Source of the DNA: Bacteroidota bacterium
GTDB lineage: Bacteria; Bacteroidota; Bacteroidia; Flavobacteriales_D; JABDKJ01
Length of the DNA: 64,000 bases
Direction: 5' to 3'
NCBI GenBank assembly: GCA_024279715.1
Contig: JAJRRH010000106.1
Coordinates: 17,102-81,101, forward strand
Part shown: positions 1-44,200 of the stretch, piece by piece
Layout: every line of letters starts with the position of its first letter
Position numbering within the stretch: the first letter of the stretch is position 1
The notes under the pieces: generated by a model
Told to the model about the DNA's origin: nothing
The model's input: the letters and a program-made list of their open reading frames with translations, nothing else
Database searches by the model: none
Position numbers and translations under genes: made by a program

Positions 1-2
1 TC

Positions 3-1772
3 ATGGATCTCTATGGTCTGAATGAAGTGCCGCTAGTGTCGCCATTACATGCTGCTTCTATCCTTACCTATAAATTCAAGCTTATATCGTCTGAAGTAGT
101 GGATGATAAACTTGAATACAAAATAAAGGTGACCCCCAGAAAAAAAGGTAATGCGAGCTGGAGGGGATATATTTGGATCCAAGAAGGCAGCTTTGCCATT
201 GTAAAAGTGGATTTAGGGATTTCCAAAAGTGGATTATTATTCTATGATGATTTTAATGTCAAACAGGAATATAAATTTCACAACGACTCGCTCCTACTTC
301 TCACTCGTCAAGAATTTGACTATAAAGCCAAAGCTGGTTCTAAAAAATTTGTTGGAAAAACCATAGCTACTTTTAGCGACTATATTATCAATCCTATTTT
401 TGAAAAACGATTTTTCAAAAATGAATTGATGGTTACCACCCAAGATGCATATGAAAAAGATTCGCTTTATTGGCAAGGAAACAGGGGTCAAAAACTCACT
501 CTTGAAGAGCAACGATTTCAGTTTGTAAAAGACAGTATATACGCCATTACGCATAGCGACCATTACAAAGATTCTATTGAACTAGCTGACAACGAAATAA
601 AACTATTAGACATACTTTGGCAAGGTATAACGTTCAGTGATTGGCGCAAAAAAAGAAGGTATTTTTTCGGGTCGGCACTCAGTATGGTGAATCCAGTGGC
701 ACCTGGAGGTATGCGATTAGGATACAATGGCGCGTATTTCAAAAAATGGGAAAGCGAAAAGATATTCAGTCTCAATGGTCGGATAGATTATGGATTGAGG
801 AATGAGAATATCCAAGGGCTATTCTCTACAAGCTACAAGTATGATCCAATGCACTTTGGATATATTGGAGCGCATATCGGAAGGTTCTATAATCTCATTG
901 CTCAAAATGATGCAGTCACCAATCTATTGCAGCGTGCCAATTGGATGGAGCAGGATTATATTGGAATATACTGGAAGAGAGAATTGTTTAATGGCTTTGA
1001 TTTAACATGGCGTTGGCGGTATGAAACCTTTCGATCCATAAGTAATTTACAGTTTGGAGAACTTACAAATGACTGGTTTGAGAACAATGATCCTATTGCT
1101 TTTGACACCTATCATTCTTTTAATAGCTCCATCAATATATCCTATACCCCTTTTAGAAAATTCATTACTGAGCCACGAAAAAAGGTTATTTTAGGAAGCA
1201 AATGGCCTACCTTCTCGCTATACTATAAAAAAGGGTTTAAGGATATCGTCAACTCCAATGTCGATTTTGACTACCTCGAATTGGAAGTGAAACAAGATAT
1301 TCGGATAAGCACGATAGGGACAAGCACTTATAAAATTCAAGGAGGACAATTTCTAAATACTAAAAAGCTTAATTATGTGGATTACAAGTTTTTTCCTATT
1401 GGTGATAAATATTTCTTTGCTAGCCTATTAGAATCTATGCAACTACAAGATACGACTATAATTACTGCTGAGGAGTATCTGAAGGTAAACTATGTCCATC
1501 ACTTTAATGGTGCATTGATAAACTACCTTCCATTGATAAAGAAAACTAGGCTTCATGTGGTTCTTGGTGCTGGTTCGTTAATCATCCCCCAATCGGACTA
1601 TCAATATCTCGAAGCCTTTGTGGGTATAGAGCGAACGGTTCGTATTCAGCGATCTAGGTATCGATTTGGACTGTTTTTTGTGGGTGCACAATCCAACCTT
1701 GGAGACATCACCCCACGACTGAAATTCGCAATACAACGGTATGATGCTAGGAATAAGAATTGGGAGTATTAG
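3..1772 (+). CDS. DUF5686-like outer-membrane beta-barrel protein, probably 5'-truncated by the window edge
   Basis: 589-aa ORF starting 2 nt from the window edge. Alternating aromatic/hydrophobic strand pattern and aromatic C-terminus (...NWEY) fit a Bacteroidota outer-membrane barrel. It resembles the C-terminal part of DUF5686/CarboxypepD_reg proteins. The family name is from remembered motif patterns, not a search. Confidence 0.55.
   Translation: MDLYGLNEVPLVSPLHAASILTYKFKLISSEVVDDKLEYKIKVTPRKKGNASWRGYIWIQEGSFAIVKVDLGISKSGLLFYDDFNVKQEYKFHNDSLLLLTRQEFDYKAKAGSKKFVGKTIATFSDYIINPIFEKRFFKNELMVTTQDAYEKDSLYWQGNRGQKLTLEEQRFQFVKDSIYAITHSDHYKDSIELADNEIKLLDILWQGITFSDWRKKRRYFFGSALSMVNPVAPGGMRLGYNGAYFKKWESEKIFSLNGRIDYGLRNENIQGLFSTSYKYDPMHFGYIGAHIGRFYNLIAQNDAVTNLLQRANWMEQDYIGIYWKRELFNGFDLTWRWRYETFRSISNLQFGELTNDWFENNDPIAFDTYHSFNSSINISYTPFRKFITEPRKKVILGSKWPTFSLYYKKGFKDIVNSNVDFDYLELEVKQDIRISTIGTSTYKIQGGQFLNTKKLNYVDYKFFPIGDKYFFASLLESMQLQDTTIITAEEYLKVNYVHHFNGALINYLPLIKKTRLHVVLGAGSLIIPQSDYQYLEAFVGIERTVRIQRSRYRFGLFFVGAQSNLGDITPRLKFAIQRYDARNKNWEY
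1693..1772 (+). repeat. 80-bp direct repeat, left copy (last 26 codons plus TAG of the DUF5686-like gene)
   Basis: Base-for-base identical to 6493..6572. Identity starts at ccaacctt and ends at the gagtattag stop codon. Flanks differ on both sides. Confidence 0.95.
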
Positions 1773-1778
1773 AAACCA

Positions 1779-3347
1779 TTATCGTTCCACCATCATCTTT
1801 TCAGATCCTATCAAGACACCTTTCTTATCTCGGAGCTGTACGACATACAATCCATTGCTTAGTGATCCTATATTGATGGTCGATTGATTCAAGGTGTTCC
1901 GTGTCAAATACTCTCTCTTTGCTTCACTACCTGTTATGGTTATGATTCTAATTTCAGATGCTTCAATGTTTGTCTTCCACTGTAATTGTAACGCATCCGT
2001 AACCGGTTGTGGCCAAAGCGTCAGACCAATATTTGGCATATAGCTTTCGCCTACACTCAAAGGCTCACAGCCATCCCACTCCACATCTCCACAGCCATCT
2101 ATCTTTAATAGTCTTGATCTGGTATCTCCATTCCAAAGTTTTTGAATCAATCCTGCCATAGCATAGCCACCATCTGGAGTTGGCTCTATGTCATTAAAAT
2201 ATTGTATTACATAATAATCTAATCCTTCAGGGTCAGAATCATTCATCGGATATTCATAATACCACTCTTGATTTCCCTCAGTATCTATCTTCATCAACCA
2301 AGGAATAGCGGTATGGTTATAATCTACTATTGGAATGGCAGTACTGCCCAACACCAGCAAGCCACCATCGTGATGCTCTAATACTTTAATAATTCTTGCT
2401 GCATGTATCTCATGACTATTCAGATATTCTTGCTGTATCTCTATGGTGCCTATATTTCCATTGTCATTAACCGATGCCATGACAATATGACTCCAGTGTA
2501 CTGGATAATCAAAATCATAATAAAAATTCTCATATGGCTCTATATATAATATGAATATCTCACCATTACTCTTCTTTACCAGTTGAAAACTTCTATTGCC
2601 CCAGCCAAAATCCGATCCTTCAGTCTCAGCCTGCCACATAATATTTCCCTCAAAATCGACCTTATTAATTATTCCTTTGAGAGTATTGTCTTCAAAGTTA
2701 TCTGATAGATCCTGCCAATCTACTGCCATTAGATACCCATCTTCTACTTTTTCAAAAGAATGAGATCGTTGCCGATATCCATCTTCTTGATTAAGAACTT
2801 TTGTCCATAATATATCCCCCTCTAAATCCATCTCTAACATAAAGGTATATTCTTCATATTCATTAGCATACGGATAAACAAAACCAACTATTATTATGGT
2901 GTTTTCTTCTGTTATCATTAAATTATTAAACGCTGTGCTTCCATCATTAAAAATAGAATATATATTGCACCCTAATGTATCCAATGAATTATTGATATGT
3001 ACAACAAATGAATTGCCTTCAGAATAGTTATATCCAATAGCTATATATCCCTCATTGTTGGGAAGTTTTTGAAAGGTTTTTGCTGAAGGAGAAAGAACTT
3101 GAGCTAAAATAGGATATGGAATAGTATCTTCGTCTAAGGTATAGCCTTCAAAATCATATCTTCTAGCTTGTGCTCCTAGACTAAACACCTTGCTTCCATA
3201 AGCCACAATAGATTCATCCTCAACAATTATATTTGTATATGTTTCTTTTTCCGAATCTAGTCCTCCAATAGTATGTTCCCAATATATGTACTGCGCTGAG
3301 GTTACCTCAAACGCAGTACACATTAATAGTATTAATAAATAACGCAT
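1779..3347 (-). CDS. secreted hypothetical protein with T9SS type A C-terminal sorting domain
   Basis: Signal peptide MRYLLILLMCTAFEVTSAQ. C-terminal Por-secretion-tail pattern (LWPQPVTDALQL...GLYVVQLRD...KMMVER). Its ATG overlaps the stop of the upstream ORF (TAATG), which suggests translational coupling. Confidence 0.8.
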   Translation of the reverse strand: MRYLLILLMCTAFEVTSAQYIYWEHTIGGLDSEKETYTNIIVEDESIVAYGSKVFSLGAQARRYDFEGYTLDEDTIPYPILAQVLSPSAKTFQKLPNNEGYIAIGYNYSEGNSFVVHINNSLDTLGCNIYSIFNDGSTAFNNLMITEENTIIIVGFVYPYANEYEEYTFMLEMDLEGDILWTKVLNQEDGYRQRSHSFEKVEDGYLMAVDWQDLSDNFEDNTLKGIINKVDFEGNIMWQAETEGSDFGWGNRSFQLVKKSNGEIFILYIEPYENFYYDFDYPVHWSHIVMASVNDNGNIGTIEIQQEYLNSHEIHAARIIKVLEHHDGGLLVLGSTAIPIVDYNHTAIPWLMKIDTEGNQEWYYEYPMNDSDPEGLDYYVIQYFNDIEPTPDGGYAMAGLIQKLWNGDTRSRLLKIDGCGDVEWDGCEPLSVGESYMPNIGLTLWPQPVTDALQLQWKTNIEASEIRIITITGSEAKREYLTRNTLNQSTINIGSLSNGLYVVQLRDKKGVLIGSEKMMVER

Positions 3348-6043
3348 TATCTTGTTATTTGTAGTTTTTGTTTGACTAAAATATCTCCATCCTGATAAAC
3401 AGATACAATATATATCCCTTGCTTCAACGATCGTATATCTAATGGCCTTACATTATCTATAGGTTTAGTCAATACATTATTTCCAAGTACATCCATAAAA
3501 TGAATAGTTGCACTACTTGTAACATCAATGCCTTGCAATAAAACATAATCATGTGCTGGATTTGGATAAACTTGAATTAAAGTTTCATCAACATTTACCA
3601 ATAGATTATGTACATTGTTGGGAGAAAAAACTTTATCTGCTCGAGATTCAGGAATATATTCATCTAAGTCATATCCACTGTAACTAATCATCAATCCTAA
3701 AGCAAAACCAGCAGCATCATTACGTTCCTTACTACTTATATCCTCTAGCAATCCATACTGAGTGGCATCAAGATTTCTATCTGTACTAGAATACAATGTT
3801 TGAAGTATTTCATAGCACATAGTATAATCTTCATGTTCCTGTTCTTGTCTTTCATTTAATTCAAAATCAACTGCAACATTACTAATCCAACTATACACCT
3901 GCTCAAAATCGTTTCTACCTGCGTATAGCTTGGCTATCAAGTAATAATCCGATATACGCTCTATGCCATTAATGAATGACAATACATTCTCTATACCCGA
4001 GTCCGATACTTCAAGGTTGTCAAAATACTCATCCGCATCATCAACGGATGATTTTAATAAAAATGATATAGCGCTATTCATAGCTTTGTTATACTCCGAA
4101 TTATAATAAGAAATCGAAGACTCCATAGCCTCTTTTTGAGAGATCAATTGCTTTCCTTGGTCAATCATATAGCGCTGATACTCACTCAAAGAATTCATCC
4201 TTTCATCTAGTTTTTGTTGGATTTTGTCAGACTTCGAAGCAGTTGGATTAGATTTTAATATCATTGTTAACAAGACGCTAGGCAACGTTGATTCTTGATT
4301 TATAGCCTCCGTCATTACCTCGACAGAAAGTGATGGAGATTTAGCCATTAACTCGTAGTATAAGTCCAAGGCTTCAGAATAATCACTCAGCAATACTTCC
4401 ATTGTTAATGCTTCTGTATCACCGCCATCTACAAGATTATCCAATGCAATCTGTTCTTGATTCATCAATGATTTGAACTCCGTAGCCAATGCCAAACCCT
4501 CCTCCATATTCTCCTCCATCAAAATTACAGCTATTGCCTCTTCGGTATGACTCCCATCATCACCAATCATATTGGCTATTTTGCCTGGACAAGTCCAAGC
4601 TTGAATTAATGAGCCATTAGAAAAAATATTTCCATCTGCTTCAGTAAGATTATCACTTAAGTGATGAAAATACGTTAGGAAGCCAACATCATCATTAAAT
4701 ATATTGTATCCATTCGAGGGATCATTATCTGTATTGATAGAATAGAATCTATTAGCAACTGATGTATTAAACCCATTGCTATGTATTCCTTTTATCCCCA
4801 TTCCAAGGGGGTTGCTCCCTGTTTTTTCGATAAGGATATCGGCAAAGTTATGGTGTCTAAAAATATTACAACTAAGTTTTAATCCGCTAACTCCATTGTT
4901 ACTTCTATTATCATCCACTGCAGCTATTCCATTACTTGTGCATCCCTGAAAATCGTTATAACTAATCAAGTTGTTTGTAGGGCCCGAACTCAGGACAATA
5001 ATACCTGTATTATTGTTTATGACTCCAGTATATCGAAATATATTATATCTAACGATATAGTCTGTACAGTTGTGAAGATAAAATCCATAAACCTCTGGTT
5101 CATCAAATGCTACCAATACTTGTGGTTGAAAAATAGGTGGCAAATCACTAAATCTACATCCAATAACTTGATCTAACGTTTGCCCTTGAAAAAGAACCCC
5201 TCGAGCACATTTGAACAAAACATTACTTATTAAATTGACCCCGTTAGATGAACTATAAAAACCATACGTAAAACCAATAATATTTGAATAACCACTTGTC
5301 CCTTCTAACAGTATATTGGCGCTACTTCCCCTTACATAGATTGCACTCCTTTCTTCCTCCGATAAAGCGTAAAAAAAGTTTGGGTTCGTGTTTACAAAAT
5401 CACAATCTAAAATAATTACATCTTTATTATCGTTGTTCGAAAACATAGGTTTCAAACCGTTATTGTATGTAAAGTTAAATCCATAATCCCAAGTGAAATC
5501 TGTTCTATCGAATAAATGTCCGGTATCAGAACTATAAGTTGCGAGTTCAACAGCTTGATTACAGTTTTTGAATTCTGATAATACTGTTGTTATTACCCCC
5601 CCTGAGCTTAGTCCAGGAGAATTGGGAGAAAAATTTGTATCGTAATTACAAATACCAATTTCAGCGTTCTCTACCATCGTATTTTTCAAATGACATCGAC
5701 CTTGATTTGTTTGACTGTAAGGCAGCAAAGAATTTCCTCTAACTTGAACTCCTTTCCATTCTCCATCTGGATCACAAGAAGTTAATATGCATACTGAAAA
5801 AGTAATTCTAGCACCCGGATTTATAATAATCTTACTACTGGTGTTGAATCGTAATTCAGATGCATCAAGAGTTAGGATTACTCCTGGTTGAAAAATAATA
5901 TTGCCCCCAAAAGAAGATATACCTACAGATTCTACCATTGTTTCAAAGATATTCTGATTTGATGTAGTTACAGTGTAATTGTTTGGATAATCAAATGTTG
6001 TACATTGACCATATACCCCCTCAATATTGGTGACAAAAAACAT
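3347..6043 (-). CDS. parallel beta-helix repeat protein with T9SS type A C-terminal sorting domain; 5' end is set by the repeat tract at 6078..6122
   Basis: 898-aa ORF. PbH1-like repeats in the N-terminal half (NLISYNDFQGC, VRYNIFRYTG, SCNIFRHHNF), an acidic helical middle, and a C-terminal CTD (VYPNPAHDYVLL...GIYIVSVYQDG...KLQITR). ATG 6043 gives MFFVTNIEGVYGQC, which has no n-region. The hydrophobic signal core continues upstream in the same frame. Confidence 0.85.
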   Translation of the reverse strand: MFFVTNIEGVYGQCTTFDYPNNYTVTTSNQNIFETMVESVGISSFGGNIIFQPGVILTLDASELRFNTSSKIIINPGARITFSVCILTSCDPDGEWKGVQVRGNSLLPYSQTNQGRCHLKNTMVENAEIGICNYDTNFSPNSPGLSSGGVITTVLSEFKNCNQAVELATYSSDTGHLFDRTDFTWDYGFNFTYNNGLKPMFSNNDNKDVIILDCDFVNTNPNFFYALSEEERSAIYVRGSSANILLEGTSGYSNIIGFTYGFYSSSNGVNLISNVLFKCARGVLFQGQTLDQVIGCRFSDLPPIFQPQVLVAFDEPEVYGFYLHNCTDYIVRYNIFRYTGVINNNTGIIVLSSGPTNNLISYNDFQGCTSNGIAAVDDNRSNNGVSGLKLSCNIFRHHNFADILIEKTGSNPLGMGIKGIHSNGFNTSVANRFYSINTDNDPSNGYNIFNDDVGFLTYFHHLSDNLTEADGNIFSNGSLIQAWTCPGKIANMIGDDGSHTEEAIAVILMEENMEEGLALATEFKSLMNQEQIALDNLVDGGDTEALTMEVLLSDYSEALDLYYELMAKSPSLSVEVMTEAINQESTLPSVLLTMILKSNPTASKSDKIQQKLDERMNSLSEYQRYMIDQGKQLISQKEAMESSISYYNSEYNKAMNSAISFLLKSSVDDADEYFDNLEVSDSGIENVLSFINGIERISDYYLIAKLYAGRNDFEQVYSWISNVAVDFELNERQEQEHEDYTMCYEILQTLYSSTDRNLDATQYGLLEDISSKERNDAAGFALGLMISYSGYDLDEYIPESRADKVFSPNNVHNLLVNVDETLIQVYPNPAHDYVLLQGIDVTSSATIHFMDVLGNNVLTKPIDNVRPLDIRSLKQGIYIVSVYQDGDILVKQKLQITR

Positions 6044-6069
6044 AAAGAAAATTAAGAATCTTAAGCCTA

Positions 6070-6129
6070 CTAGTTTATGTGCGATTGTGCGATTGTGCGA
6101 TTGTGCGATTGTGCGATTGTGCTTCTCAT
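6070..6129 (-). other. upstream ATG plus a 19-codon out-of-frame leader ORF running through the octanucleotide repeats
   Basis: Minus strand reads ATG AGA AGC ACA ATC GCA CAA TCG CAC AAT CGC ACA ATC GCA CAA TCG CAC ATA AAC TAG. The ATG has an A-rich upstream context (aattaaaatcaaaATG) and lies 86 nt upstream of ATG 6043, so it is out of frame by 2. Confidence 0.6.
6078..6122 (-). repeat. octanucleotide tandem repeat, 5 full units plus a partial one (plus strand TGTGCGAT; coding strand CACAATCG)
   Basis: Read directly: tgtgcgat x5 followed by tgtgc. It lies between ATG 6129 and the signal-peptide core of the 898-aa ORF. Confidence 0.95.
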
Positions 6130-6195
6130 TTTGATTTTAATTGTGCCACCACAATAAAAGTAATTATGGTGGCTGGTTAGATTACTTGTTGTGTT

Positions 6196-6227
6196 CAAAT
6201 ATAGGTGTTATTATCCAAACTTTCAAA
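6196..6227 (-). promoter_or_regulatory. Bacteroidota sigma-A-type promoter (TTTG-N20-TATATTTG) for the cargo operon
   Basis: Minus strand has TTTG at 6227..6224 and TATATTTG at 6203..6196 with a 20-nt spacer. This matches the -33 TTTG / -7 TAnnTTTG consensus. It sits about 67 nt upstream of ATG 6129. Confidence 0.5.
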
Positions 6228-6356
6228 TTATCACATTAATATAACTCCAATAATTCCCCAATCTCAATATTTAGATTGTTTTGCAGAAAGCACGTAACCC
6301 GAAAAATTCATCGATTTTTAAACGGAAAAATAATACCAGCAAGTTTGGGGTTTTTC

Positions 6357-6378
6357 AAACACCCAAATTTGGGTGTTT
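6357..6378. repeat. 22-bp perfect palindrome AAACACCCAAATTTGGGTGTTT
   Basis: Read directly. A third related half-site, TTTGGGGTTTTT, lies at 6344..6355. The palindrome is upstream of the cargo-operon promoter, in the non-coding arm of the cassette. Confidence 0.9.
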
Positions 6379-6492
6379 CTAAATCGGGGTATCATGCTTG
6401 GCTCCCCACAATCCATCTCTCAGTTCTGCTGAGCTGGTCGAAGTATTCATTCAATACACTTCGTTTTTGTAGGTATAAAGAGAGTTAATGGC

Positions 6493-6572
6493 CCAACCTT
6501 GGAGACATCACCCCACGACTGAAATTCGCAATACAACGGTATGATGCTAGGAATAAGAATTGGGAGTATTAG
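6493..6572 (+). repeat. 80-bp direct repeat, right copy (orphan duplicate of the DUF5686-like gene 3' end)
   Basis: Identical to 1693..1772 and offset by exactly 4800 bp. It does not continue any long ORF. Confidence 0.95.
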
Positions 6573-6695
6573 TATAAAAGAAGTCTGAGTATTAGGCGAT
6601 AATTTTAAAAAACCAATAATCGTCACTTTTTAAGAGATAATTTCACGCCATTTTTACAAAAATATGTACCTTGTTCCCTCAAAAATAACAGCAAT

Positions 6696-9104
6696 ATGTA
6701 CCATTTTACAAGAGTTAGTTTTCTTATTTTATTCACCCTTGTTTGGGGTAATTTCTATACCCAAACCATTCCAATAAGTCAAGGTGGCACTGTGGATGTC
6801 ACTTGTGGTGGCGCTCCAATTATCTTTACAGATAGTGATGCTAGTGGTGGTAATTACGCGGCTGGAGAAGATTATACTATCACCTTCTGTCCTGATGGTG
6901 GAAATGCCGTATTCTTCTTAATTGACGCAATGACTGCAGGTGATACTTGGGATGTTGGTGCTGGGGACTATATCACCATTTATGATGGCGACAATACTTC
7001 AGCCAATATTCTTGGAAGCATTAGTACAGCTACGGATGGGCCAGTAATGTATTATGCTGCAACTGTTGAAAATCCATCTGGGTGCTTGACGATACAATTT
7101 AATTCTTCTGCAACAAGTAGCGGTGGTGCAGGTTGGACCTCACAAATCAACTGCGGTAATCAATGGCAACCTTTTAGTATTGAATTAGAAACAAGCCCTA
7201 CTGCTATGGATGACCAAAACTATACGGACATCTGTCAAGGGGATTCTGTTCACTTTTCAGCCAATGGTATTTTCCCTTATTCTGATGGGTCTGGATATAA
7301 TCAAGACAATAATAACTGTTATTGGGAATGGGATCTTGGTGACGGAACGGAGCTTGAAGGATTTGGACTAACAGAGGTTGACAATTCCTACACCGATCAG
7401 TTCGGATATCCAATAAAAATAACGGTTACAGACACGCTAGGTTTGATTCAGATATTTGAATCCTCCGTAAGGGTTTCTACCACGCCGAGTTTTGCTGGTG
7501 TTGTGAGTCAACTTCAGGATAGTATATGTCTTGGTAGTACAGCTACACTTGTGGGAGGTATTGCTCAAAATAACCAAGCTACCTTTGGCGTGGGTTCTAT
7601 TCCATCCTCTTTTATCAGTGGTGGTTTTTTAGCAGGGCAGACCTTCCTGCCAGATGGATCTGGTGCTTCTTATGAAACTTCAATTATCATTGATGACTTT
7701 CCTGCTGGAACTGTTTTCGAAAATGAATCCGATATTGTTGCTATATGTGCTACTATAGAGCATTCATATCTTGGTGACCTTGATATTTCATTGACTTGTC
7801 CTGATGGATCAACTATTGACCTTGTTACCCAAACTGGTGGCTCCACCAACTTGGGTATTCCTTGGGCTACCGCACCAGTAGATGGTGAATCTGCCAACAA
7901 CACCCCCGGCGTAGGTTTTGAATACTGCTGGAGACCCGATGCGGACAATGGTACTTTTGCGGATGAAGCAGGTCAAAATAGTCAGGAGTTTATTAGCGGT
8001 GATGGCCCTGGCACCTATACCGATACACAAATGGCAGAAGGAAGTTACCTGCCGATACAACCTATCTCTGACCTCATCGGTTGCCCAATTAATGGTGAAT
8101 GGACAATAACTGTTACCGATAATCTTGGTGCAGATAATGGTTATATTTTCTCTTGGGGTGTTCAATTTAATCCATTGATTGATCCAAATGCGGAAACCTA
8201 TCAGCCAAATCTTATTGATGTATATTGGTTAGATGATGCGACCATCATTGCTGGAAACGATACCATCATCACAGTCCAACCAATAGAGACTGGTAATTTT
8301 CCATACACGTTATTGGTTTCGGATGATTTTGGCTGTGATTATGATACGACAGTTGTCGTCACTGTTGTAGAAGCTTCTTCTTCTAGTGCTGTAGATCCAG
8401 CCTGTGCCAATCAAACAGCCATTGAAGTCCTTAATTCTGCCTATGGTGGTACTTGGTCTTATGAAACGGATATTGAAGGCGGATTTGCGAGTTTTGATAC
8501 GGAACAAGCATTTGTGAACTTACCGGGGGTCTATACATTGATATATCACGACTTATTATGCCAAACCGATGATGTACATATTGTCAATTTTCTTCCCCAA
8601 CCATTTGTGGATCTACCAGACACGATGACTATTTGTGAAGAATTTCCAGAAATAATAACTGCTAATTCCGGAGATACTGGATTTGGTGACTTTGAGTACA
8701 CGTGGATATTCCAAGGGGATACGATGGTGCCAGGAAATCAAGTTTCTCAAGAAGTGCAAGAAGCTGGCGTTTACGCTATTAATGTTTACGATCCTATTTG
8801 TGATGTTAGTTTTACAGATATTATTGATATTTCTACTAAGCCTTGTGGTATAGAAACTTATAATGTATTTACTCCTAATGGCGATGGAGAGAATGACTTT
8901 TTCTACATTCAATCTATTCATGAAAATATCTATGATGGATCCGTCGTACAAGTGTATAACAGATGGGGGAATCTACTCTTCGAGGAAACTAATTATAAGA
9001 ATGATTGGAATATGGATGAGTTGAATGATGGTACGTATTACTTTGTGCTTAGTGTGAGTAATGGGGATACGCACAAAGGCTCATTTACTGTTCTACATGA
9101 ATAG
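6696..9104 (+). CDS. T9SS type B (gliding-motility-associated) CTD protein with a proprotein-convertase P-domain-like module
   Basis: Signal peptide MYHFTRVSFLILFTLVWGNFYTQ. P-domain-like stretch HSYLGDLDISLTCPDGSTIDLV...GEWTITVTDN. C-terminal type B CTD YNVFTPNGDGENDFF...VYNRWGNLLFE...GTYYFVLSV. Confidence 0.85.
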   Translation: MYHFTRVSFLILFTLVWGNFYTQTIPISQGGTVDVTCGGAPIIFTDSDASGGNYAAGEDYTITFCPDGGNAVFFLIDAMTAGDTWDVGAGDYITIYDGDNTSANILGSISTATDGPVMYYAATVENPSGCLTIQFNSSATSSGGAGWTSQINCGNQWQPFSIELETSPTAMDDQNYTDICQGDSVHFSANGIFPYSDGSGYNQDNNNCYWEWDLGDGTELEGFGLTEVDNSYTDQFGYPIKITVTDTLGLIQIFESSVRVSTTPSFAGVVSQLQDSICLGSTATLVGGIAQNNQATFGVGSIPSSFISGGFLAGQTFLPDGSGASYETSIIIDDFPAGTVFENESDIVAICATIEHSYLGDLDISLTCPDGSTIDLVTQTGGSTNLGIPWATAPVDGESANNTPGVGFEYCWRPDADNGTFADEAGQNSQEFISGDGPGTYTDTQMAEGSYLPIQPISDLIGCPINGEWTITVTDNLGADNGYIFSWGVQFNPLIDPNAETYQPNLIDVYWLDDATIIAGNDTIITVQPIETGNFPYTLLVSDDFGCDYDTTVVVTVVEASSSSAVDPACANQTAIEVLNSAYGGTWSYETDIEGGFASFDTEQAFVNLPGVYTLIYHDLLCQTDDVHIVNFLPQPFVDLPDTMTICEEFPEIITANSGDTGFGDFEYTWIFQGDTMVPGNQVSQEVQEAGVYAINVYDPICDVSFTDIIDISTKPCGIETYNVFTPNGDGENDFFYIQSIHENIYDGSVVQVYNRWGNLLFEETNYKNDWNMDELNDGTYYFVLSVSNGDTHKGSFTVLHE

Positions 9105-9174
9105 AGATAAAATATAGTGACTAAATTGATTTTACTGAGATGGACTAGGTTAATTAACAAAGGGAATTCGTTTA

Positions 9175-10137
9175 TTAATCCAAAATTCCCTTGGTCATTA
9201 AGTCTTTCGCCAATTGTTCTGTAAAAACAGTTGCTCCCTTTCGATTCAGGTGCATAGCATTATAAAAATACGTGGTGTCGCTGCAAATCGGGTCATACAC
9301 GTAATTGATAAAGTGCACGTTGGACTCCTTTCCTAGTTGTTCAAACCCCATAACCAAACTATCCGTCTGTACTTGCAGGTCAGTAAATCCGCTATACTGT
9401 GGTGTAAATACCAAGACCAACTGAATATTTCTTTTCCGACAATCCTTTATCATATCATCCAATATTTCGAACCCCTCCTCTATAAGTTCATCCGGATGTA
9501 ATAAATAACCCCTTTTTAGTGTATCCGTCATTTGCTTAAACTCCCTGTTCCAACTTTTGTCTTTCGCTTCAAACCCTTTATACTCCGTATGTTTTATAGA
9601 AGGTGATTGTCCGGCGTAAAGCCTTAACCCCTCTTTGAATTCATCCATATATCCATGGTATTTGTAGAGCGGGAAATAACGGTCTAAAAAAAGTCGGTTG
9701 TCAACAAGTTTTAAATGGTCATAAATATTATTGTCGCTTAAAAAAGGCAGGTATTGTTGTTTTTTGAATACCGTCTCTGCATGCCCCATTGACATTAAAT
9801 CGACTGTCTGGATAATTACTCTAGGTGGCTTATTATAGGCTAAATAACTATCCCATCGTGCAAGTTGGGATCTCAATCTAGCGCCCTCCATTCCTAAATT
9901 ATATGAGTCTAATCCTGTTTTATCCTCCAAAATTTTAGGATCTATCAGACGCATCGCTCTTGAAGAACCGGCAACTAATAATTCTGCATTAATCTCACCT
10001 TCTACAATCATGTTCCACGTCTGGTGGTCGTTATTAGTGGATCGCTTCAAACCTTTATCTGCCATAAATGATAGTCCATAACAAATCGATAAGAATAATA
10101 AACCATAAATAAACGTGCATAGTAAAAATCCCTTCAT
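9175..10137 (-). CDS. membrane-anchored SGNH/GDSL-hydrolase-like partner of the MBOAT protein (AlgX/AlgJ-like role inferred)
   Basis: N-terminal TM helix. GSS in VAGSSRAM resembles block I, and NAMHLNRKG resembles the block V DxxH region. It lies 3 nt downstream of the MBOAT gene on the same strand. Confidence 0.55.
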   Translation of the reverse strand: MKGFLLCTFIYGLLFLSICYGLSFMADKGLKRSTNNDHQTWNMIVEGEINAELLVAGSSRAMRLIDPKILEDKTGLDSYNLGMEGARLRSQLARWDSYLAYNKPPRVIIQTVDLMSMGHAETVFKKQQYLPFLSDNNIYDHLKLVDNRLFLDRYFPLYKYHGYMDEFKEGLRLYAGQSPSIKHTEYKGFEAKDKSWNREFKQMTDTLKRGYLLHPDELIEEGFEILDDMIKDCRKRNIQLVLVFTPQYSGFTDLQVQTDSLVMGFEQLGKESNVHFINYVYDPICSDTTYFYNAMHLNRKGATVFTEQLAKDLMTKGILD

Positions 10138-10140
10138 CGC

Positions 10141-11604
10141 TTAAAATTGAAAATAAATAAATGAAGTTGCCTCATTAGAGATAAACAATATAATAATGAT
10201 TGCAAGCACAAAATATAAACCCCGTCTTACGATAGGAATCTTATCAAAAATATCTTCTAGTCCATGTTGCTTTCTCCGTTGTATCCATTCCACCCCCAAA
10301 AGAATGAAAATGAATAGAAAAGTGTATTTAAAATTGTTGTACTCCCTGACATTCTCGAACATATTGGACGTGAAGTTAGTCAGATTACCAGTCAGCATAC
10401 TATAAATATAATGAAAAGCATCCTGAATGGATTCCGCACGGAAAAAAATCCAAGCAAATACAGTTAATCCAAATGTTATACCCATTTGAAAAAGCTCTTT
10501 AATGGTTGGATACCAACGGTTTTGAGCAACAACATCAAGATTTTTTCTATTCTTTTTCATAAAAAAAGAAGGGAGAAAATATAAAGCATTCAGGGCCCCC
10601 CAAAACACAAAAGTCCAGTTGGCACCATGCCAGAAACCACTGACAAGAAAGATAGCAAAGATATTTCTTAACTGAATGCCCTGACTACCACGGCTTCCTC
10701 CCAAAGGAATATAAAGATAGTCTCTAAACCAAGTAGAAAGAGAAATATGCCAACGCCGCCAAAACTCGGCTATATCCCTAGAAAAGTACGGGAAGGCAAA
10801 GTTTTGCATTAGGTTGAAACCGAATAATCGAGAAGTACCAATAGCAATATCAGAATACCCTGAGAAATCTCCATATATTTGAAATGCAAACAAAATGGCA
10901 CCAATGACCAATCCACCGGAAGGTATTGTATCTACATTATTAAATATATGAGACACAAACGGGGATGCCATATCTGCGATTGCAATCTTTTTGAAGAACC
11001 CCCAAAGTATTTGCCGCATGCCATCTATCGCATTTTGTTGGTTGAATGTTCGCTTTTCATAAAATTGTGGGAGTAAATTAGTAGCTCGCTCTATCGGGCC
11101 CGCTACCAATTGTGGAAAAAAACTAACAAAAGCAAAGAAGGCTATGGGATCCTGGCTAGCTTTCAATTTACCACGATAAATATCAATGGTATAGCTCATT
11201 GTTTGGAAGGTATAAAAACTTATTCCTACGGGCAATACTATTTTTAAAGTTGAAAAATTGGGACTCATCCCAAACTGAGCAATCAAATCAGCGAAACTTT
11301 CAATGAAAAAATTGTAATACTTGAAAAAACCAAGGAATCCGAGGTTAACTACCATGCTTAAAATCAGGAAATTCTTCTTTCTGGAGGAACTATCCGACCT
11401 TTCAATTTCCCTGCCTGCCCAGAAATCAAGAACAGAACTGATGACTATAAGGGATAAAAAACGCCAATCCCACCAACCATAGAATAAATAACTAACCAAC
11501 AATACAAGTAGGTTCTGATTACGTAAACTACGCTGAAAAACAAACCAGTACAGAACAAAAACTGCCGGCAGAAACAAGAGGAACTCGAAAGAATTAAATA
11601 ACAT
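10141..11604 (-). CDS. MBOAT family O-acyltransferase (AlgI/DltB-like)
   Basis: Polytopic 487-aa protein with the AlgI/DltB signature RRWHISLSTWFRDYLYIPLGGSRG and FWHGANW. Confidence 0.9.
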   Translation of the reverse strand: MLFNSFEFLLFLPAVFVLYWFVFQRSLRNQNLLVLLVSYLFYGWWDWRFLSLIVISSVLDFWAGREIERSDSSSRKKNFLILSMVVNLGFLGFFKYYNFFIESFADLIAQFGMSPNFSTLKIVLPVGISFYTFQTMSYTIDIYRGKLKASQDPIAFFAFVSFFPQLVAGPIERATNLLPQFYEKRTFNQQNAIDGMRQILWGFFKKIAIADMASPFVSHIFNNVDTIPSGGLVIGAILFAFQIYGDFSGYSDIAIGTSRLFGFNLMQNFAFPYFSRDIAEFWRRWHISLSTWFRDYLYIPLGGSRGSQGIQLRNIFAIFLVSGFWHGANWTFVFWGALNALYFLPSFFMKKNRKNLDVVAQNRWYPTIKELFQMGITFGLTVFAWIFFRAESIQDAFHYIYSMLTGNLTNFTSNMFENVREYNNFKYTFLFIFILLGVEWIQRRKQHGLEDIFDKIPIVRRGLYFVLAIIIILFISNEATSFIYFQF

Positions 11605-27565: not shown

Positions 27566-27636
27566 GGTCGGGTGGCCGAGTGGCTAGGCAGTGGTCTGCA
27601 ACACCATCTACAGCGGTTCGAATCCGCTCTCGACCT
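27566..27636 (+). tRNA. tRNA-Cys (anticodon GCA)
   Basis: Cloverleaf folded by hand. Acceptor GGTCGGG/CTCGACC with one G-U. Anticodon stem GTGGT/ACCAT with loop CTGCAAC. 4-nt variable loop. T-arm AGCGG-TTCGAAT-CCGCT. Discriminator U, the known tRNA-Cys identity element. No encoded CCA. Confidence 0.9.
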
Positions 27637-38283: not shown

Positions 38284-41200
38284 CTGAAAATGGTTAATGG
38301 CCCTGTAAATGGTTTTGGGAATAATGGATCATGGAGTCTGATAACATAATAATATGTTCCTACTGGTACGTGCTTACCTTCATATTTTCCATCCCAAGGG
38401 ATATATGTTCCTTTGGATTCGTATAATTTATCTCCCCATCGATTGTAAATATTAGCTTCCATTTCTGGGAATTTATCCGAATTAGCAATATTCCAAACAT
38501 CATTGACTCCATCGTCATTTGGGCTAAATCCATCTGGAATAACCACTTGATTGACTAGCGTTATGAGAATGCTATCACGCATCATACATCCGTTACCATC
38601 CGTTACGGTAACAATAAACTCCTGCGTTCCCACATTAAAATATTCAGGATTAGCAATAGAAGAATCATTCAATAATAACCCTGGTTCCCAATGATATGCC
38701 ACGGCTGTAGGACCTGTAGGGTCACCTCCTAATTCAACAATGTCTTCAGGGAAAACATCTTGATCAACCCCAGCATCTACAAGCGGCAAGGGGTTGACTA
38801 ATAGGGTTAGTGTATCACTATGCGAACACACATTATTAGATACAGTAAGTATGAATTCATTATAAGTAAAACCTAAGGTTATATCAACTGTTGGGCCTGT
38901 TCCTATCTGTTGACTTTGGTTATCCTCCCATGAATAACTATCTGCTCCTATGGATTGTCCTCCACTTAGTGTTACTGGCAGTTGGTCACACGCTGGTTCT
39001 TGATTGTCAATAATAGCGATAACCTCTTGATCATAACCTACTTCAACTGTTTCAAGATAATTACATTGATTGGCATCCGTAACTGTTAAGCTATATGTGC
39101 CGCTCACAATACCCGTAAGATCGTCCCCTGAAAATTCATCATTTTGGTCATTTGTCCAAGTGAGTATATACCCTGGACTACCACCGGTAATAGTTGTGTA
39201 TAGACTTCCATCCTCACTTGTGTAACAAAATGCATTTACTGTACTATCCACCACAACGATAATTGCTGAAGGTTCTGTGATTTCAAAATCATAAATATTC
39301 ACACAGTTATGGCTATCGGTAATTTCTACTGAATAAAAACCAGCTTCTAGTTCGTCAGCATCTTCCTGGTCTTCAAAGAAACCAGGTACATTAGAGGTCC
39401 AATTATATTCGTAAGGTGATGTTCCTCCCATAGTTTCCTGATCTATCATTCCTGAGTTATTTCCAAAACACATTAAGTCAGTAACAATACTACTAGCATA
39501 TAATGAGTCTGGATTTAGTATTGAAAGGGTATCTCTTTTTATACAACCACTAATTTGATCTGTTAGTAAGAGATAATAGTCCCCCCCTAAAAGATTAGAA
39601 ATATCTTCGGTAACTATATTATTAACATTTCCATCGGATTGGGCATTCCAAATGAAGTCAAATTGTTCAGAACCTCCTGTGGCGGTAAGATCAATTGCTC
39701 CATCACCGACATTATAACATGAAATACTATCCACAGTATACTGTAATTCGATGATAACACTAGCGGTGATAGAAAAGGTAGTATCAATTGCACAACTTTT
39801 TGCATCTGTAAAATTCAATGTATAACTTCCTACTGTTAAATTTTCAATAGAAGAGGTTTCTCCACCTGTACTCCAATCATAATTATATTCGGTTGTTCCA
39901 CCACTTACAAAAACCTCAATAGATCCATCGGTATCTGATTCACAAACTATATCTTGAATGCTAGCTACAAGAACTAATGGTTCTGGCTCTGTAATATCAA
40001 TATCTACATTAGTAGTACAAGTGTTGGCATCCACAACTTGAATAGAATAGTTTCCTGCCCCAATATTTTCAGAAAAATGGATGTTCCCAGGGTCTATTTC
40101 TCCAACGGGTACATTCCAATTGTAATTATAATTTTGTCCTTCCGTCAATGGTGTACCACCAGTTGGCGATAATACTATTGATCCAGATCCATCATTATTA
40201 CAGTTGAGATTAATTTCAACCACATTTATTATAAGACTATCGGGTTGTGTTATCTCATACGTTTGTTCATACGGACAACCTGTTGCATCAGAAAGAAATA
40301 AGGTGTATTCTCCTGCCACCAAATTAGATATGGTTGTGTTAGAAGGTATATTATCCATTTGCGAGCTCGTCCATGACAAATTCATAATAGGCATGGTGAA
40401 GTCATCTGATAATTCAATACTTATTTCTCCTGTTGCATTTCCATAACACAAAATATCTGTAATCGTACTTGTCACAGTATAATCTTCATTTTGAATTAAA
40501 AAATCTAGCGTTGAAGTACAATCGCTACCATCAGAAACGACCACATAATAAGAACCTTGAACTAGAAATCCTATTTCATTTCCTGTTTCTGTTAATAAGA
40601 AATTATCACTTGTATACCATTCATAAGAATAACCACCTTCTCCACCAGTAGCGGTAACGGTAGCAGTACCTGTTGGTAATTCACAACTCGATGTGGTAGT
40701 AGTAATATCTATAAAAATCTCTCCATTTTCATTGACCATAAAACTGTCAGAAAGTGTACAATCATTGTCATCTGTAATAAGTACATTATAGGTGCCTGCT
40801 TGAATATTATCTATACTCTGAAAACTTGAATTATAATCGGGATTTTCATCTTGAGTCCATGAGAATGAGTATGGTGTTGTACCGCCATCCACATTGACCA
40901 AATTTACCTCTCCATCATTCAGACCGAAGCATGAAACATCTATGATTTGCTCTACTAAACTTAGAGGGTCTGGTTCTATAACTTCAAAAGAATTGGTTCC
41001 CCAACATAATGCTTGATCGGAGATAATCACTGTGTAAATTCCTACTTCAAGTGAAGATAGATCACCATTTACATCTGGCGTGACATCCCCGTTAGGGCCT
41101 GTCCAGGATATATTATATTCAGGTTCACCACCAGTAATTGTAATATCAATAGCACCATCACTAAGACCATTGCAGGATACATTAGTAATATTGGCAAAAC

Positions 41201-44200
41201 TTGTGATGAATTCTTTCTCTTCCACGGTGATGATATCCCCTAAAATACATCCATCCATTGCGGTAATTAGAACAGTATAATCACCGAGAATAAGATTTGA
41301 AATATCTTCATCCGTTGGGTTATAGTTGCCTTCAGGGCCAGACCATATAATACCTACTGGCTCGGTCATTCCACCATAAGTAATATCTATAGCACCATCA
41401 TTTAAGCCTGGACAAGATACATTTGTAACCTCATAATCCAATACTCCTCCCACATCTGATAGAACAAAATCTTGAGATACTGAACAATTCAAATCATCTG
41501 TTGCTATTAATTGATAAACACCTGCTGAAATATTATCGATTATATTGTCATTATCATTGATGGCTTCCCCACTACCATGTAACCAAGTGTAGGTATAATC
41601 TCCTGCGACCATCCCGCCTGAGATAGAGGCTGAAGCACTACCATTTGACAATAAACAAGTAGAACTTGTGGTAATAACATCAATTTCTATGATTGGGGAT
41701 TCAGAAACAATAAAAGTCTCCTCATGAATACAGCCGTTTGGCGTAGTAACTACCACTGAGTATTCTCCCGCGATTAAGTTAAATTGGTTCTGAGCGTTTT
41801 GATCTACATTGTTTCCAAGCCAATTAAAACTCATGTTTTCAATAGGTGTATTACTTCCAAAATCTAAATCTAAAATGATAGATCCATCATTAGACCCAAA
41901 ACAGGTCACATTACTAATAGATTCCACAATTTCAAAATCAACTGCAGGAGCTACGATATAATTCTCAATTATTTCACAATTATTATCATCTGTAACAGAG
42001 ACAGTATACACATTAGGAGCTAAATTGTCCTGATCCTGATTCTGAGGGTTAATAATGTTCATTCCTGACCAGTTATACTGGTAGATTCCTGTTCCACCCA
42101 ACACAGACAGATTAATCATTCCATCTTCTGCAGAAGGACATGTTTCATTAAAAATGGTTGCACTAAGTTCGAGTTCATCAGGATCGGAAAGATCGTATGA
42201 TTCTATCAATTCACATCCATTATTATCAGTCACTAATATGGTATAAGTACCGCCATCCAATCCAGTAATTGAGGAGTCTGAACTAGTGAAATTATTATCA
42301 CTTGTCCATTGGTAAGATATAGGGTTAGTCATTCCATTTGCTGTGACAACTATTGCACCGTTCATATCTCCAAAGCAAAGGAGGGATTGCACCATAGCGG
42401 TAAGATTACCAACATCATCTGACAACGTGAATTGCTGATTGGCTGAACAATTATTTTCGTCAGTAATTTCAACCATGTATAGACCAGGACTTAAACCATC
42501 GATACTAGAACCTGTTCCGATAGCAGTATTAGTATTAAACCAATTAATTGAATATTCTGGGATTCCTCCTAATATTTCATTGACCTCAGCGTGACCATTC
42601 TCTAGTCCACAAGTAGAGTTGTTTGCATCAAGATTAAATGTTAATTCTGCGGGTTCATTAATGGTAAATGTTTGCTCAATACTACACGAATTTACATCTT
42701 CAATATGAACGGTATAATCACCACCATTGAGACCATTAACATCTTGTGTGGTTTCAAAAACTCCATTTCCATCAGTCCACGTATATTCATATAAAGGTGT
42801 GCCACCCTCAATTTGAATATCTATAGATCCTGTTCCATCTTGATAACATTGATTATGCGATATAGATATAACATCCAATGTTAATAGATTTGATTCCGTT
42901 ACGACAAACGAAGTATCCTTTGAACAGCCTAATTCATCGGTGATACTGAGAGTATAGGTGTTAGCAGATAAATCTGTTGGATCTTCAATAGTAGGATCAG
43001 TAATGGATTCTCCTGACCATGAAATATTAAATGGTTGAACGCCACCAGAAATATCAATATCAATTGATCCACTACTATCTCCAGCACAATCAACACCATC
43101 AATTAGAGCAAAAACTGAAATTTCTGTGTTTTCATTATCTATTGAATATTCTTTACTAATAATACAACCGCTTTCATCTTCTAATGTAAGAGTATAATCA
43201 CCTGCAGGTATATTCATTAGATTACCATTTTCTACTGTAGCACCATTGGGAATTGGAGACCATGTGGGTGTTATTGTCCCTTGTCCACCTGATAGTGATT
43301 CGATAACTAAAGATCCTGTCGCATCACCATAACAAGCTACATTATTAACTGCAACTTCGGCTTCTATCAACAAATTCTCTGTGACAGACAATAACGTATC
43401 GAAAGAACAATTAAGATCATCCTCTATGTTTAGAATATATTCACCAACACCTAAGTTAAAAATATCTTGATCATTTGAGTTATACCCAACAGAAGACCAA
43501 TTAAAACTATAATTACCCGAACCACCAAGGTTAATGAGCTCAATACTTCCAGTTTCTTCATTATTACAATCGATGTTAGTAATAATTGCATCACCAAATA
43601 AGGGTGTATTTGATCCTATAACGAATGTTGAATCTGCTTGACAATTATTTTCATCTGAAATCATAACGGTGTATGATCCTGCCACAATATTCTGAATATC
43701 CTGCTGGTCTGACCCACCAGTCCATAGGTATGAATAAGATGGAGTACCTCCTGATACATCAATATCAATTTCGCCACTATCATCGCCAAAACATGCCACA
43801 TCTATTACATCCGCAGTAATGGTTAATTCCACAACAGATTCTATAACATAATCATTAGTAATTGTACAAGATGCCACATCAGAAACTGTTAATTGATAAG
43901 TCCCTGGCGGTAAATCAAATATTGATGAGGCTTCAAAATCATCATGTATATCACTGTTCCAAATATAAGTATAACCCCCTGTACCTCCAATTGTCTCGGT
44001 AAGTTCAATAGATCCGTTAGTGTCTGACGCACAGAATACACTATTAACATCTGCCGCCACAATTATTTCATCGTTTTCCAATACCTCAAAAGACATAACA
44101 GCCTCACAATTATTATCATCATTTACTGTCACAATGTAGTCTCCGGCAATAAGTTCTGAAACTACTGTAGAATTAGGGTTGTTAATGACACCATCACCAA

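Follow-up and report, generated by a model that had tools for sequence, protein, structure and literature searches.

In this work, we asked how a 4.7-kb pair of cargo genes came to lie between two perfect copies of the 3' end of a neighbouring gene, and whether both of these copies exist in the cell. The window, i.e., the whole 64-kb stretch of DNA that was analysed, contains the following features at this locus:

3..1772, plus strand: DUF5686/CarboxypepD_reg gene, 3' 589 codons (PF18939, E=2e-119)
1693..1772, plus strand: 80-nt repeat, left copy; last 26 codons plus TAG of the DUF5686 gene
1779..3347, minus strand: gene for a 522-aa secreted protein with a type-A T9SS CTD (PF18962, E=1e-8)
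3347..6043, minus strand: gene for an 898-aa orphan protein with a type-A T9SS CTD (PF18962, E=5e-9)
6078..6122, no strand assigned: 8-bp tandem array (TGTGCGAT)n, read as ATCGCACA x5 on the coding strand
6123..6492, no strand assigned: non-coding upstream region of the insert operon; its right end is the junction with the right repeat copy
6493..6572, plus strand: 80-nt repeat, right copy; non-coding, either an orphan 3' fragment or an assembly seam
6573..6695, plus strand: ancestral spacer between DUF5686 and cargo B, aligning to the spacer of loci L010/L009
6696..9104, plus strand: 802-aa type-B (CHU_C) T9SS cargo gene (PF13585, PF01483, PF18911, TIGR04131)

The segments 1693-1772 and 6493-6572 are identical at 80 of 80 positions and are spaced by 4800, so that the original prediction of a perfect repeat, with the left copy formed by the 3' end of the DUF5686 gene, was correct in all coordinates and distances. 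The DNA outside the copies had been described as unrelated, and the flanking bases indeed differ on both sides: the left copy lies between ...CACAAT and AAACCA, and the right copy between ...AATGGC and TATAAA. A search for further copies of the 80-mer in the 64-kb window returned only these two, even with up to three mismatches allowed, and shuffled controls gave a match in 0 of 100 cases. Besides the 8-bp tandem array, it is the sole repeat of at least 31 nt in the window. The left edge of the 80-mer falls mid-codon and carries no motif; the right edge is the end of the DUF5686 gene. The right copy is non-coding because of an in-frame TAA (6486-6488) directly upstream of it.

The full DUF5686 protein (P0001) has 840 aa, and its complete gene is found on contig L002 of the Logan graph described below. 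It is a conserved, outer-membrane-type protein with the C-terminus ...NKNWEY, the last residue being aromatic, and its homologues stop at the same residue. The insert between the repeat copies, about 4.7 kb long, comprises two minus-strand type-A T9SS CTD genes, the 8-bp array and 370 nt of non-coding DNA, much as had been predicted (two such genes, a promoter and repeat region and about 360 bp of non-coding DNA). These genes are the only ORFs of at least 80 aa in the insert, and Por_Secre_tail is the only domain matched. The 522-aa protein scored 35.4 bits against PF18962 (cut-off 27) and 23.1 bits against TIGR04183 (cut-off 23), and the 898-aa protein scored 36.9 and 32.7 bits against the same models. 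Both are thus at or above the curated cut-offs and belong to the type-A CTD proteins. The N-terminus of the 522-aa protein, MRYLLILLMCTAFEVTSAQ, is signal-peptide-like as judged by eye, and the stop codon of its gene lies 6 nt from the left repeat copy, as originally noted. The best non-self homologue of this protein is 34% identical and the sole other match of the 898-aa protein is 23% identical; among 1.8-5.8 billion sequences, no homologue above 34% identity was found for either protein outside the assembly of their own genome. A PDB sequence search with the 898-aa protein returned no match.

The 898-aa ORF as annotated has no signal peptide. The 8-bp array sits between an upstream ATG at 6129 and this ORF, and according to the frame analysis a leader is gained only with 4 or 7 array units, which fuse the hydrophobic MRSTIAQSH...KLVGLRFLIFFMFFV in frame with the ORF. 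The array, judged from its sequence, looks like a slipped-strand ON/OFF switch that would currently be OFF. Hexamers of the sigma-70-like type occur on the minus strand of the region 6123..6492, and positions 6357-6378 form a perfect palindrome of 22 nt. An Rfam search of this region gave no match, and a comparison with the DNA beyond either copy, to the left of the left one and to the right of the right one, showed no significant similarity.

The loci of the nearest relatives, L010 and L009, come from organisms that are not conspecific with the source of the window (71-72% aa identity for DUF5686 and 67% for cargo B). In both, a 177-bp spacer separates DUF5686 from the CHU_C cargo gene to its right, and there is a single homologue of the 80-mer. 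The original prediction had proposed that an empty site with one 80-bp copy be sought in relatives; such a site was found here, though in another species, and removal of one repeat together with the insert would restore exactly the L010/L009 layout. Because the nearest relatives have that site empty, the comparison supports the view that the 4.7-kb segment was inserted into an ancestral layout that lacked it. The segment corresponding to the 80-mer is identical at 54-58 of 80 positions in relatives, compared with 80 of 80 between the two copies in the window. The right copy ends 123 nt before the start of the type-B gene at 6696, again in line with what had been stated. The spacer 6573..6695 contains two blocks, one degenerate and terminator-like, the other promoter-proximal, and its last 32 nt are 84% identical to the spacer of the relatives (E=0.002). 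The type-B cargo protein, which has PKD and P-domain regions, is encoded by the conserved right-hand neighbour of DUF5686 in the clade, with synteny to L009/L010 and L004/L011. In the lineage of the DUF5686 homologue P0003 (67% aa identity; loci L003-L006 and L011) the slot holds a different filling of 2.1 kb, and at L007 yet another gene follows DUF5686. A second copy of the gene's own 3' end was found at 0 of 86 related DUF5686 loci, while the positive control was detected. Whether the repeat is real or a seam, the surface-protein genes of this clade vary at the site that separates DUF5686 from the CHU_C cargo gene.

The original prediction interpreted the repeats as the attL/attR-like footprint of a site-specific or homology-driven insertion, and the insert as either a non-autonomous unit mobilised in trans or a decayed island. 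Its statement that no integrase or transposase is present was borne out by the domain searches for the insert, and the sole tRNA is 21 kb off. Furthermore, no recombinase or transposase was detected among the called genes of the Logan contigs L002 (about 10 kb leftwards) and L008 (from window position 10834 rightwards), which are housekeeping genes, and the terminal 100 nt of the insert contain no terminal inverted repeats of at least 7 nt. In composition, the insert was indistinguishable from the host. The interpretation as a mobile cassette was not supported by these results, taken together with the orphan character of the proteins and the recurrence of 0/86. Target-site duplications of bacterial elements typically measure 2-15 bp. 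The missing transposase domain, the missing terminal inverted repeats and a duplication of 80 nt speak against an IS or transposon insertion. Formally, host sequence duplicated perfectly on both sides of an insert counts as a target-site duplication, and transposition with staggered cuts and fill-in might be invoked for it; with a length far beyond the usual range, no transposase, no inverted repeats and an insert that is single-copy within the window, this origin is scarcely credible.

Elements that target the 3' ends of genes or tRNAs are well known, among them phage 21/e14 in icd and the tRNA-targeting islands. The 80-mers might accordingly be attL and attR of a non-autonomous cassette whose recombinase is encoded elsewhere in the genome, as they cover the 3' end of a gene up to and including its stop codon, and the site is empty in relatives. 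We consider this improbable: neither the insert nor L002/L008 carries an integrase, and the first three genes right of the repeat encode the type-B cargo, a DUF1574-like protein and an MBOAT protein. Moreover, the site is not reused at any of the 86 DUF5686 loci, no related cassette was found anywhere, the composition is host-like, the perfect identity over 80 nt implies an element copy from the same lineage, and the junction 6492/6493 is missing in Logan. A bolder version, in which the 80-mers would be real recombination sites for an unlinked recombinase and the insert one of a class of integron-like T9SS cargo cassettes of marine Flavobacteriales, with a promoter but no recombinase of their own, moved into the 3' end of a conserved outer-membrane-type gene and in this case also phase-switched by the 8-bp repeat, is very improbable.

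By comparing the window with Logan, an independent k-mer graph (k=31, singleton k-mers dropped, Minia3 clean-up, all 31-mers distinct), the two copies could be considered separately. Among public runs, only SRR32233992 was found to contain these exact proteins, and the source genome may derive from another run. At this locus, L002 extends to 1772, L001 covers 1743-6107 and L008 starts at 10834. L002 (18.8 kb) covers the window from position 1 and ends exactly at 1772, and L001 (4.4 kb), which encodes the exact 522-aa protein, covers 6107..1743 at 100% identity and starts 30 nt inside the left copy, with an overlap between the two contigs of k-1 = 30 nt. Logan thus confirms the left copy and its junction with the insert, and the graph forks precisely where the repeat ends on the right. 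On the other hand, no incoming branch was seen where the repeat begins on the left, L002 running unbroken through 1693-1772, and the junction 6492/6493 was not seen in this graph. A sequence preceding a second 80-mer would stop L002 at 1722. Between the end of L001 at 6107 and the start of L008 at 10834, neither a direct join of 6492 with 6573 nor a junction lacking the insert was observed in the contigs retrieved. The unitig of about 430 nt expected from 6093 to 6522 exceeds what we take to be the Minia limits for tips and erroneous connections (GATB defaults). Graph clean-up could in principle explain the missing in-branch, if the insert haplotype were at least 4x rarer and 6123-6492 polymorphic. 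The window differs from the Logan contigs by three SNPs and no indels, and the three consecutive genes right of the repeat (6573-10834) are not intact in Logan, while the flanks were recovered. The sample contains more than one haplotype, as a SNP-level strain mixture. The original prediction had named an assembly artefact as the finding that would overturn it, and here the outcome is divided: the repeat is present in the contig, but the left junction of the right copy is absent from the independent graph.

A real duplication would be the scar of a recent recombinational insertion, by homology-facilitated illegitimate recombination (HFIR) or by a Campbell-type single crossover, which we regard as quite possible although we lean against it. 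In the first version, conspecific donor DNA would have paired in the DUF5686 3' end and been joined illegitimately on the other side, 80 bp "too early"; equivalently, a 4.8-kb circle with one 80-mer would have integrated through one Campbell-type crossover. Displaced in this way, the resident 3' end would survive as a non-coding orphan, the right copy, and RecA acting between the copies could delete the insert precisely, giving rise to a presence/absence polymorphism. In favour of it, a contiguous contig contains the junction, and junctions are not invented by standard de Bruijn assemblers. The order of the parts is also the expected one, namely an intact gene, a new module, a 3' orphan preceded by an in-frame stop, and the ancestral spacer and neighbour, and the identity ends at the gene end, where homology between donor and recipient would cease. 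An identity of 80/80 compared with about 70% in relatives points to a donor of the same lineage and a recent event, with which the native composition agrees. The Logan data would fit if the run held donor-type and insert-free haplotypes and the assembled genome were a recombinant from another sample. However, recombination of this kind needs three haplotypes or a different source sample, the donor arrangement was not observed, and the left junction of the right copy was not seen in the sole independent graph, though the insert assembles there (4.4 kb, 100%). The same model has been put forward to explain orphan modules, both in Rhs loci and in T6SS effector-immunity arrays, and HFIR is rare where it was measured (PMC5361080).

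We hypothesize that the locus is a real strain-variable cargo islet and that the second 80-mer is an assembly seam. This is the reading we tentatively favour, at somewhat less than an even chance, and a single line of evidence leads to the seam, namely that the Logan graph lacks 6492/6493. The islet would span 4.7 kb and form one operon with two type-A cargo genes specific to the lineage, of which one seems to be switched by the 8-bp repeat. It would directly follow the DUF5686 stop codon, at a position that the nearest relatives leave empty and others fill differently. Such islets would most plausibly be gained and lost via ordinary homologous recombination between co-occurring strains. The right 80-nt copy would most likely be absent from the cells. 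A second haplotype, with the spacer and cargo B directly behind DUF5686, would occur alongside the insert-bearing one, and the assembler may have connected the latter to reads or edges of the former. The read or edge from the second haplotype would begin with the last 80 nt of DUF5686, and these would have stayed in the contig as an overhang. We infer that the other branch of the fork at 1772 is the insert-free haplotype, and that an assembler of the overlap- or repeat-graph type, or a join made in post-processing, produced the source genome, apparently a MAG. The strain mixture, the identity of 80/80, the left edge without a landmark and the right edge at the point where the haplotypes diverge support the seam. 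Against it stands the fact that de Bruijn assemblers (MEGAHIT, metaSPAdes) cannot create 6492/6493 without reads holding it; for a seam to arise, long reads must therefore have been assembled by overlap or in a repeat graph, or contigs must have been merged.

Should both copies be real, the locus would be a clean and very recent case of T9SS cargo remodelling without mobile-element machinery. The 80-bp copies would then also serve as an inherent switch by which two surface proteins can be deleted, which stays within known recombination biology. If the repeat is a seam, perfect att-like repeats at strain-variable indels in MAGs can be assembly products, which can be screened for with an independent k-mer graph. 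We know of no systematic description of haplotype-switch or overhang seams in metagenomes, and their mechanism is deduced here. The locus resembles such seams in that the duplicate is perfectly identical, immediately precedes the divergence of the haplotypes and sits at the re-join, its outer edge has no biological landmark and its junction is absent from the independent k-mer graph. With integrase-borne islands and prophages, such as phage 21/e14 in icd, it shares repeats that equal the 3' end of the target to the last base, an intact gene and empty relatives; unlike these, it has no integrase, no recurrent site, no foreign composition and only 4.7 kb with two cargo genes. In the orphan modules of Rhs, CDI and T6SS effector-immunity loci, a new module likewise follows a conserved sequence, the old DNA is displaced behind a 3' remnant and no recombinase is needed (PMC5361080). 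Here, however, the duplicated gene is an unrelated outer-membrane-type neighbour and not the toxin or cargo core, there is a single event and no array, the products are T9SS substrates without an immunity gene, and the junction was read from an assembly. The perfect 80-nt duplication also sets the locus apart from flexible genomic islets, as a simple double crossover yields none. In other respects it matches them: the flanks are conserved (DUF5686, CHU_C cargo, then MBOAT), the composition is native, mobility genes are lacking, the content of the slot varies (empty, the 2.1-kb filling, another gene or the 4.7-kb insert), and the cargo consists of surface or secreted proteins.

An exact 80-nt direct repeat was found at 1693-1772 (copy 1) and 6493-6572 (copy 2) of the window, with a start-to-start spacing of 4800 nt. 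A search that allowed up to 3 mismatches found just two copies in the 64 kb, and 100 shuffles gave no match; the 80-mer is the sole repeat of at least 31 nt in the window besides an 8-bp tandem array. Copy 1 consists of the final 26 codons and the TAG of the DUF5686/CarboxypepD_reg gene. Copy 2, which ends 123 nt before the start of the type-B (CHU_C) T9SS cargo gene, has an in-frame TAA directly upstream and is therefore non-coding. Recomputation of the repeat, the genes and the spacing returned every coordinate of the original prediction. Older, decayed homology was sought to the left of copy 2 and between the ends of the insert and the flanks, and the local alignments were no better than those of shuffles (best p ~0.05 before multiple testing). 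The features of the region are as follows:

3..1772, DUF5686/CarboxypepD_reg gene (PF18939, E=2e-119; the full protein, P0001, has 840 aa)
1779..3347, minus strand, 522-aa gene with a type-A T9SS sorting domain (PF18962, TIGR04183)
3347..6043, minus strand, 898-aa gene with a type-A T9SS sorting domain (PF18962, TIGR04183)
6078-6122, tandem array (TGTGCGAT)n within the cassette, i.e., the DNA between the two copies
6696..9104, plus strand, type-B (CHU_C) cargo gene, here cargo B

Run SRR32233992 has the identical protein on its contigs; otherwise no conspecific genome was found, and the best DUF5686 homologues were 67-72% identical. In the two closest loci, on the JGI contigs L010 and L009, DUF5686 is followed by a 177-nt spacer, by a CHU_C gene of 802 aa that shares 67% identity with its counterpart in the window, and then by MBOAT; they have a single homologue of the 80-mer, which matches the window's at 54/80 positions. 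Window positions 6573-6695 align to this spacer in a block matching the terminator-like hairpin of L010 and in a promoter-proximal block, and the last 32 nt of the spacer are 84% identical to the relatives (E=0.002). Since the relatives have one 80-mer homologue and an alignable spacer, copy 2 and the DNA downstream of it represent the ancestral arrangement of the DUF5686 end, spacer and cargo B. The removal of 4800 nt from the window would give the layout of the relatives, in which the site is empty; compared with these loci, the segment is an insertion. In L009 (4052-6492), DUF5686 is divided into two ORFs of 277 and 537 aa, and the second continues into the beginning of CHU_C; this split probably reflects frameshift errors of an old metagenome assembly and not a real pseudogene. 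In the lineage of the homologue P0003 (67% aa identity; contigs L003-L006 and L011), the same slot has a different 2.1-kb filling (L004 3102-5172, also present in L003, L005, L006, and L011), whose small genes are similar to parts of cargo B, and the DUF5686 end is not repeated at these loci. The 181-aa and 282-aa genes of the filling resemble internal cargo B pieces (window 7212-7580 and 7977-8396), the latter gene ending in a type-A CTD despite its type-B resemblance, and the filling looks like a domain-shuffled partial paralogue. Homology between it and the cassette was ruled out, the CTD being the only similarity. In another relative (L007), a further secreted-protein gene begins ~150 nt after the DUF5686 stop. 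Judging from these contigs, the slot after DUF5686 is variable within the clade, and outside this clade the synteny of DUF5686 with cargo B is lost. L011 (JBLIMR010000002.1) is titled 'Gammaproteobacteria bacterium', yet it carries a Bacteroidota-type DUF5686, CHU_C, and MBOAT block, so this bin is probably mislabelled or contaminated.

The insertion and its empty site in relatives were upheld, but the evidence is against the att-flanked (attL/attR) mobile unit that had been proposed: the cassette has no mobility gene, terminal inverted repeats or recurrent site, and its composition is host-like. The genes called on the Logan contigs L002 (~10 kb leftward) and L008 (from 10834 rightward) are housekeeping genes, e.g., LNT, TilS, UDG, RNase E/G, MutY, SSB, and GldD. 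A tRNA or structured RNA as the target was rejected; the only tRNA is at 27566, and an Rfam search of 1500-7000 gave no match at E<=1. Inverted repeats were absent from the cassette ends, the terminal 100 nt of which do not share even a 7-mer. The GC content of the cassette is 0.350 vs. 0.358 for the window, and its tetranucleotide distance equals the window mean, and a foreign origin was rejected on these grounds. A recurrent att site was likewise rejected, with a second copy of the gene's own 3' end in 0 of 86 DUF5686 loci (taken from 79 species-representative genomes and from contigs of JGI and ENA); as a positive control, the same script recovered the repeat of the window itself. On this comparison the cassette is a one-off event and not a recurrent integration site. 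Because of this evidence, it is highly unlikely that the 80-mers are att sites of a site-specific cassette served by a trans-acting integrase, and transposition with an 80-bp target-site duplication is hardly credible; both are much less likely than a mechanism of homologous recombination.

Non-coding DNA makes up 370 nt of the cassette, and the two cargo genes are its only ORFs of at least 80 aa. The sole match of the 898-aa protein in 5.8 billion sequences is 23% identical, and the best match of the 522-aa protein among 1.8 billion representatives is 34% identical. There was no PDB sequence match, and the window contains no paralogue of the cassette. Going by these searches, public data hold no donor or sister cassette. 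The array at 6078-6122 comprises five ATCGCACA units that separate an ATG at 6129 from the 898-aa ORF downstream of it (region 6043-6129, minus strand). With 4 or 7 units, this ATG would be in frame with the ORF via a hydrophobic leader (KLVGLRFLIFFMFFV), and with the present 5 units the reading from it meets a stop; the array resembles a slipped-strand ON/OFF switch, which this assembly shows in the OFF state. The upstream region of the cassette also has a perfect 22-nt palindrome, AAACACCCAAATTTGGGTGTTT, at 6357-6378, which lies directly beside the best sigma-70-like hexamer pair of that strand of the cassette operon, the minus strand (6358..6330, extended TG), and might serve as an operator or form a hairpin. 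The stops of DUF5686 and the convergent 522-aa gene are 6 nt apart (1773-1778), and the terminator-like block found 3' of DUF5686 in relatives is now displaced beyond copy 2; therefore, antisense read-through of DUF5686 transcripts into the cassette may occur. Elsewhere in the window, diverged repeats of 35-54 nt recur many times in register at ~38500-47000, which suggests a very large minus-strand gene with repeated domains; in tetranucleotide usage this segment is the most atypical.

Among public runs, these exact proteins were found in SRR32233992 alone, in the form of Logan contigs. Logan assembles with k=31, discards singleton k-mers, applies the Minia3 clean-up, keeps all 31-mers distinct and reports contigs >150 bp (PMC12424806). 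Contig L001 covers window 6107..1743 at 100% identity and ends in the 8-bp tandem array on one side and 30 nt inside copy 1 on the other. Contig L002, of 18.8 kb, spans window 1..1772, differs there by one synonymous SNP and ends exactly at 1772. As their 30-nt (k-1) overlap shows, the two are neighbours at a fork on the right edge of the 80-mer. A trivial file artefact is thereby ruled out, including a duplicated FASTA line, suspected from the length of 80 and the spacing of 60 x 80, because this independent assembly forks exactly at 1772|1773. A second, differently preceded 80-mer would give its first 31-mer two predecessors, and L002 would then stop at 1722; no such break is present, and the contig continues to 1772. 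Minia by default removes tips no longer than 10k and erroneous connections no longer than 9k, so a unitig of ~430 nt (6093-6522) should survive the clean-up. The junction 6492|6493 therefore lacks support in SRR32233992, although the cassette itself assembles cleanly from that run. The window differs from the Logan contigs by three SNPs (647, 11709, and 22612) and zero indels. Exact Logan look-up gave no intact match for the three genes to the right of the repeat (cargo B, a 320-aa gene, and MBOAT), nor for a 70-aa ORF of the non-coding arm and a 514-aa start variant. On the other hand, a contig from 10834 onward is present, and the flanks of 6573-10834 are on contigs of 18-36 kb. Given the SNPs and the genes not found intact, SRR32233992 is a strain mixture, and the data point to 6573-10834 as the region in which co-occurring strains differ most.

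As the best explanation, we tentatively favour that the cargo islet is real and varies between strains and that its second 80-mer is a seam of the assembly; the seam we infer from one line of evidence, the Logan graph. In the simplest reading, two haplotypes would share DUF5686 through its stop codon, the first running on into the cassette and the second continuing otherwise, with the spacer and cargo B as its most likely continuation. In that case copy 2 would represent the beginning of a read or edge of the second haplotype, kept where both haplotypes re-join. Overlap and repeat-graph assemblers accept overhangs of this kind, but de Bruijn assemblers cannot make such a junction. It is only slightly less probable that the islet is the same and the second 80-mer is a genuine recombination scar, against which the unsupported junction speaks. 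The perfect identity of the copies (vs. ~70% in relatives) and the native composition would mean that the incoming 80-mer came from the same lineage. This would point to a pairing of homologous DNA within the 3' end of DUF5686, the opposite side being joined illegitimately, or to a single crossover of a circle bearing one 80-mer, and either route would leave the resident DUF5686 end as a displaced orphan. If the repeat is real, the block of identity would stop at the stop codon because the homology of the haplotypes ends there, and its 80 bp would permit precise RecA-dependent loss of the cassette. An origin by the same logic has been put forward for the orphan modules of T6SS effector-immunity arrays and of Rhs loci (PMC5361080), and, seam or scar alike, the cassette falls within known kinds of genome plasticity.
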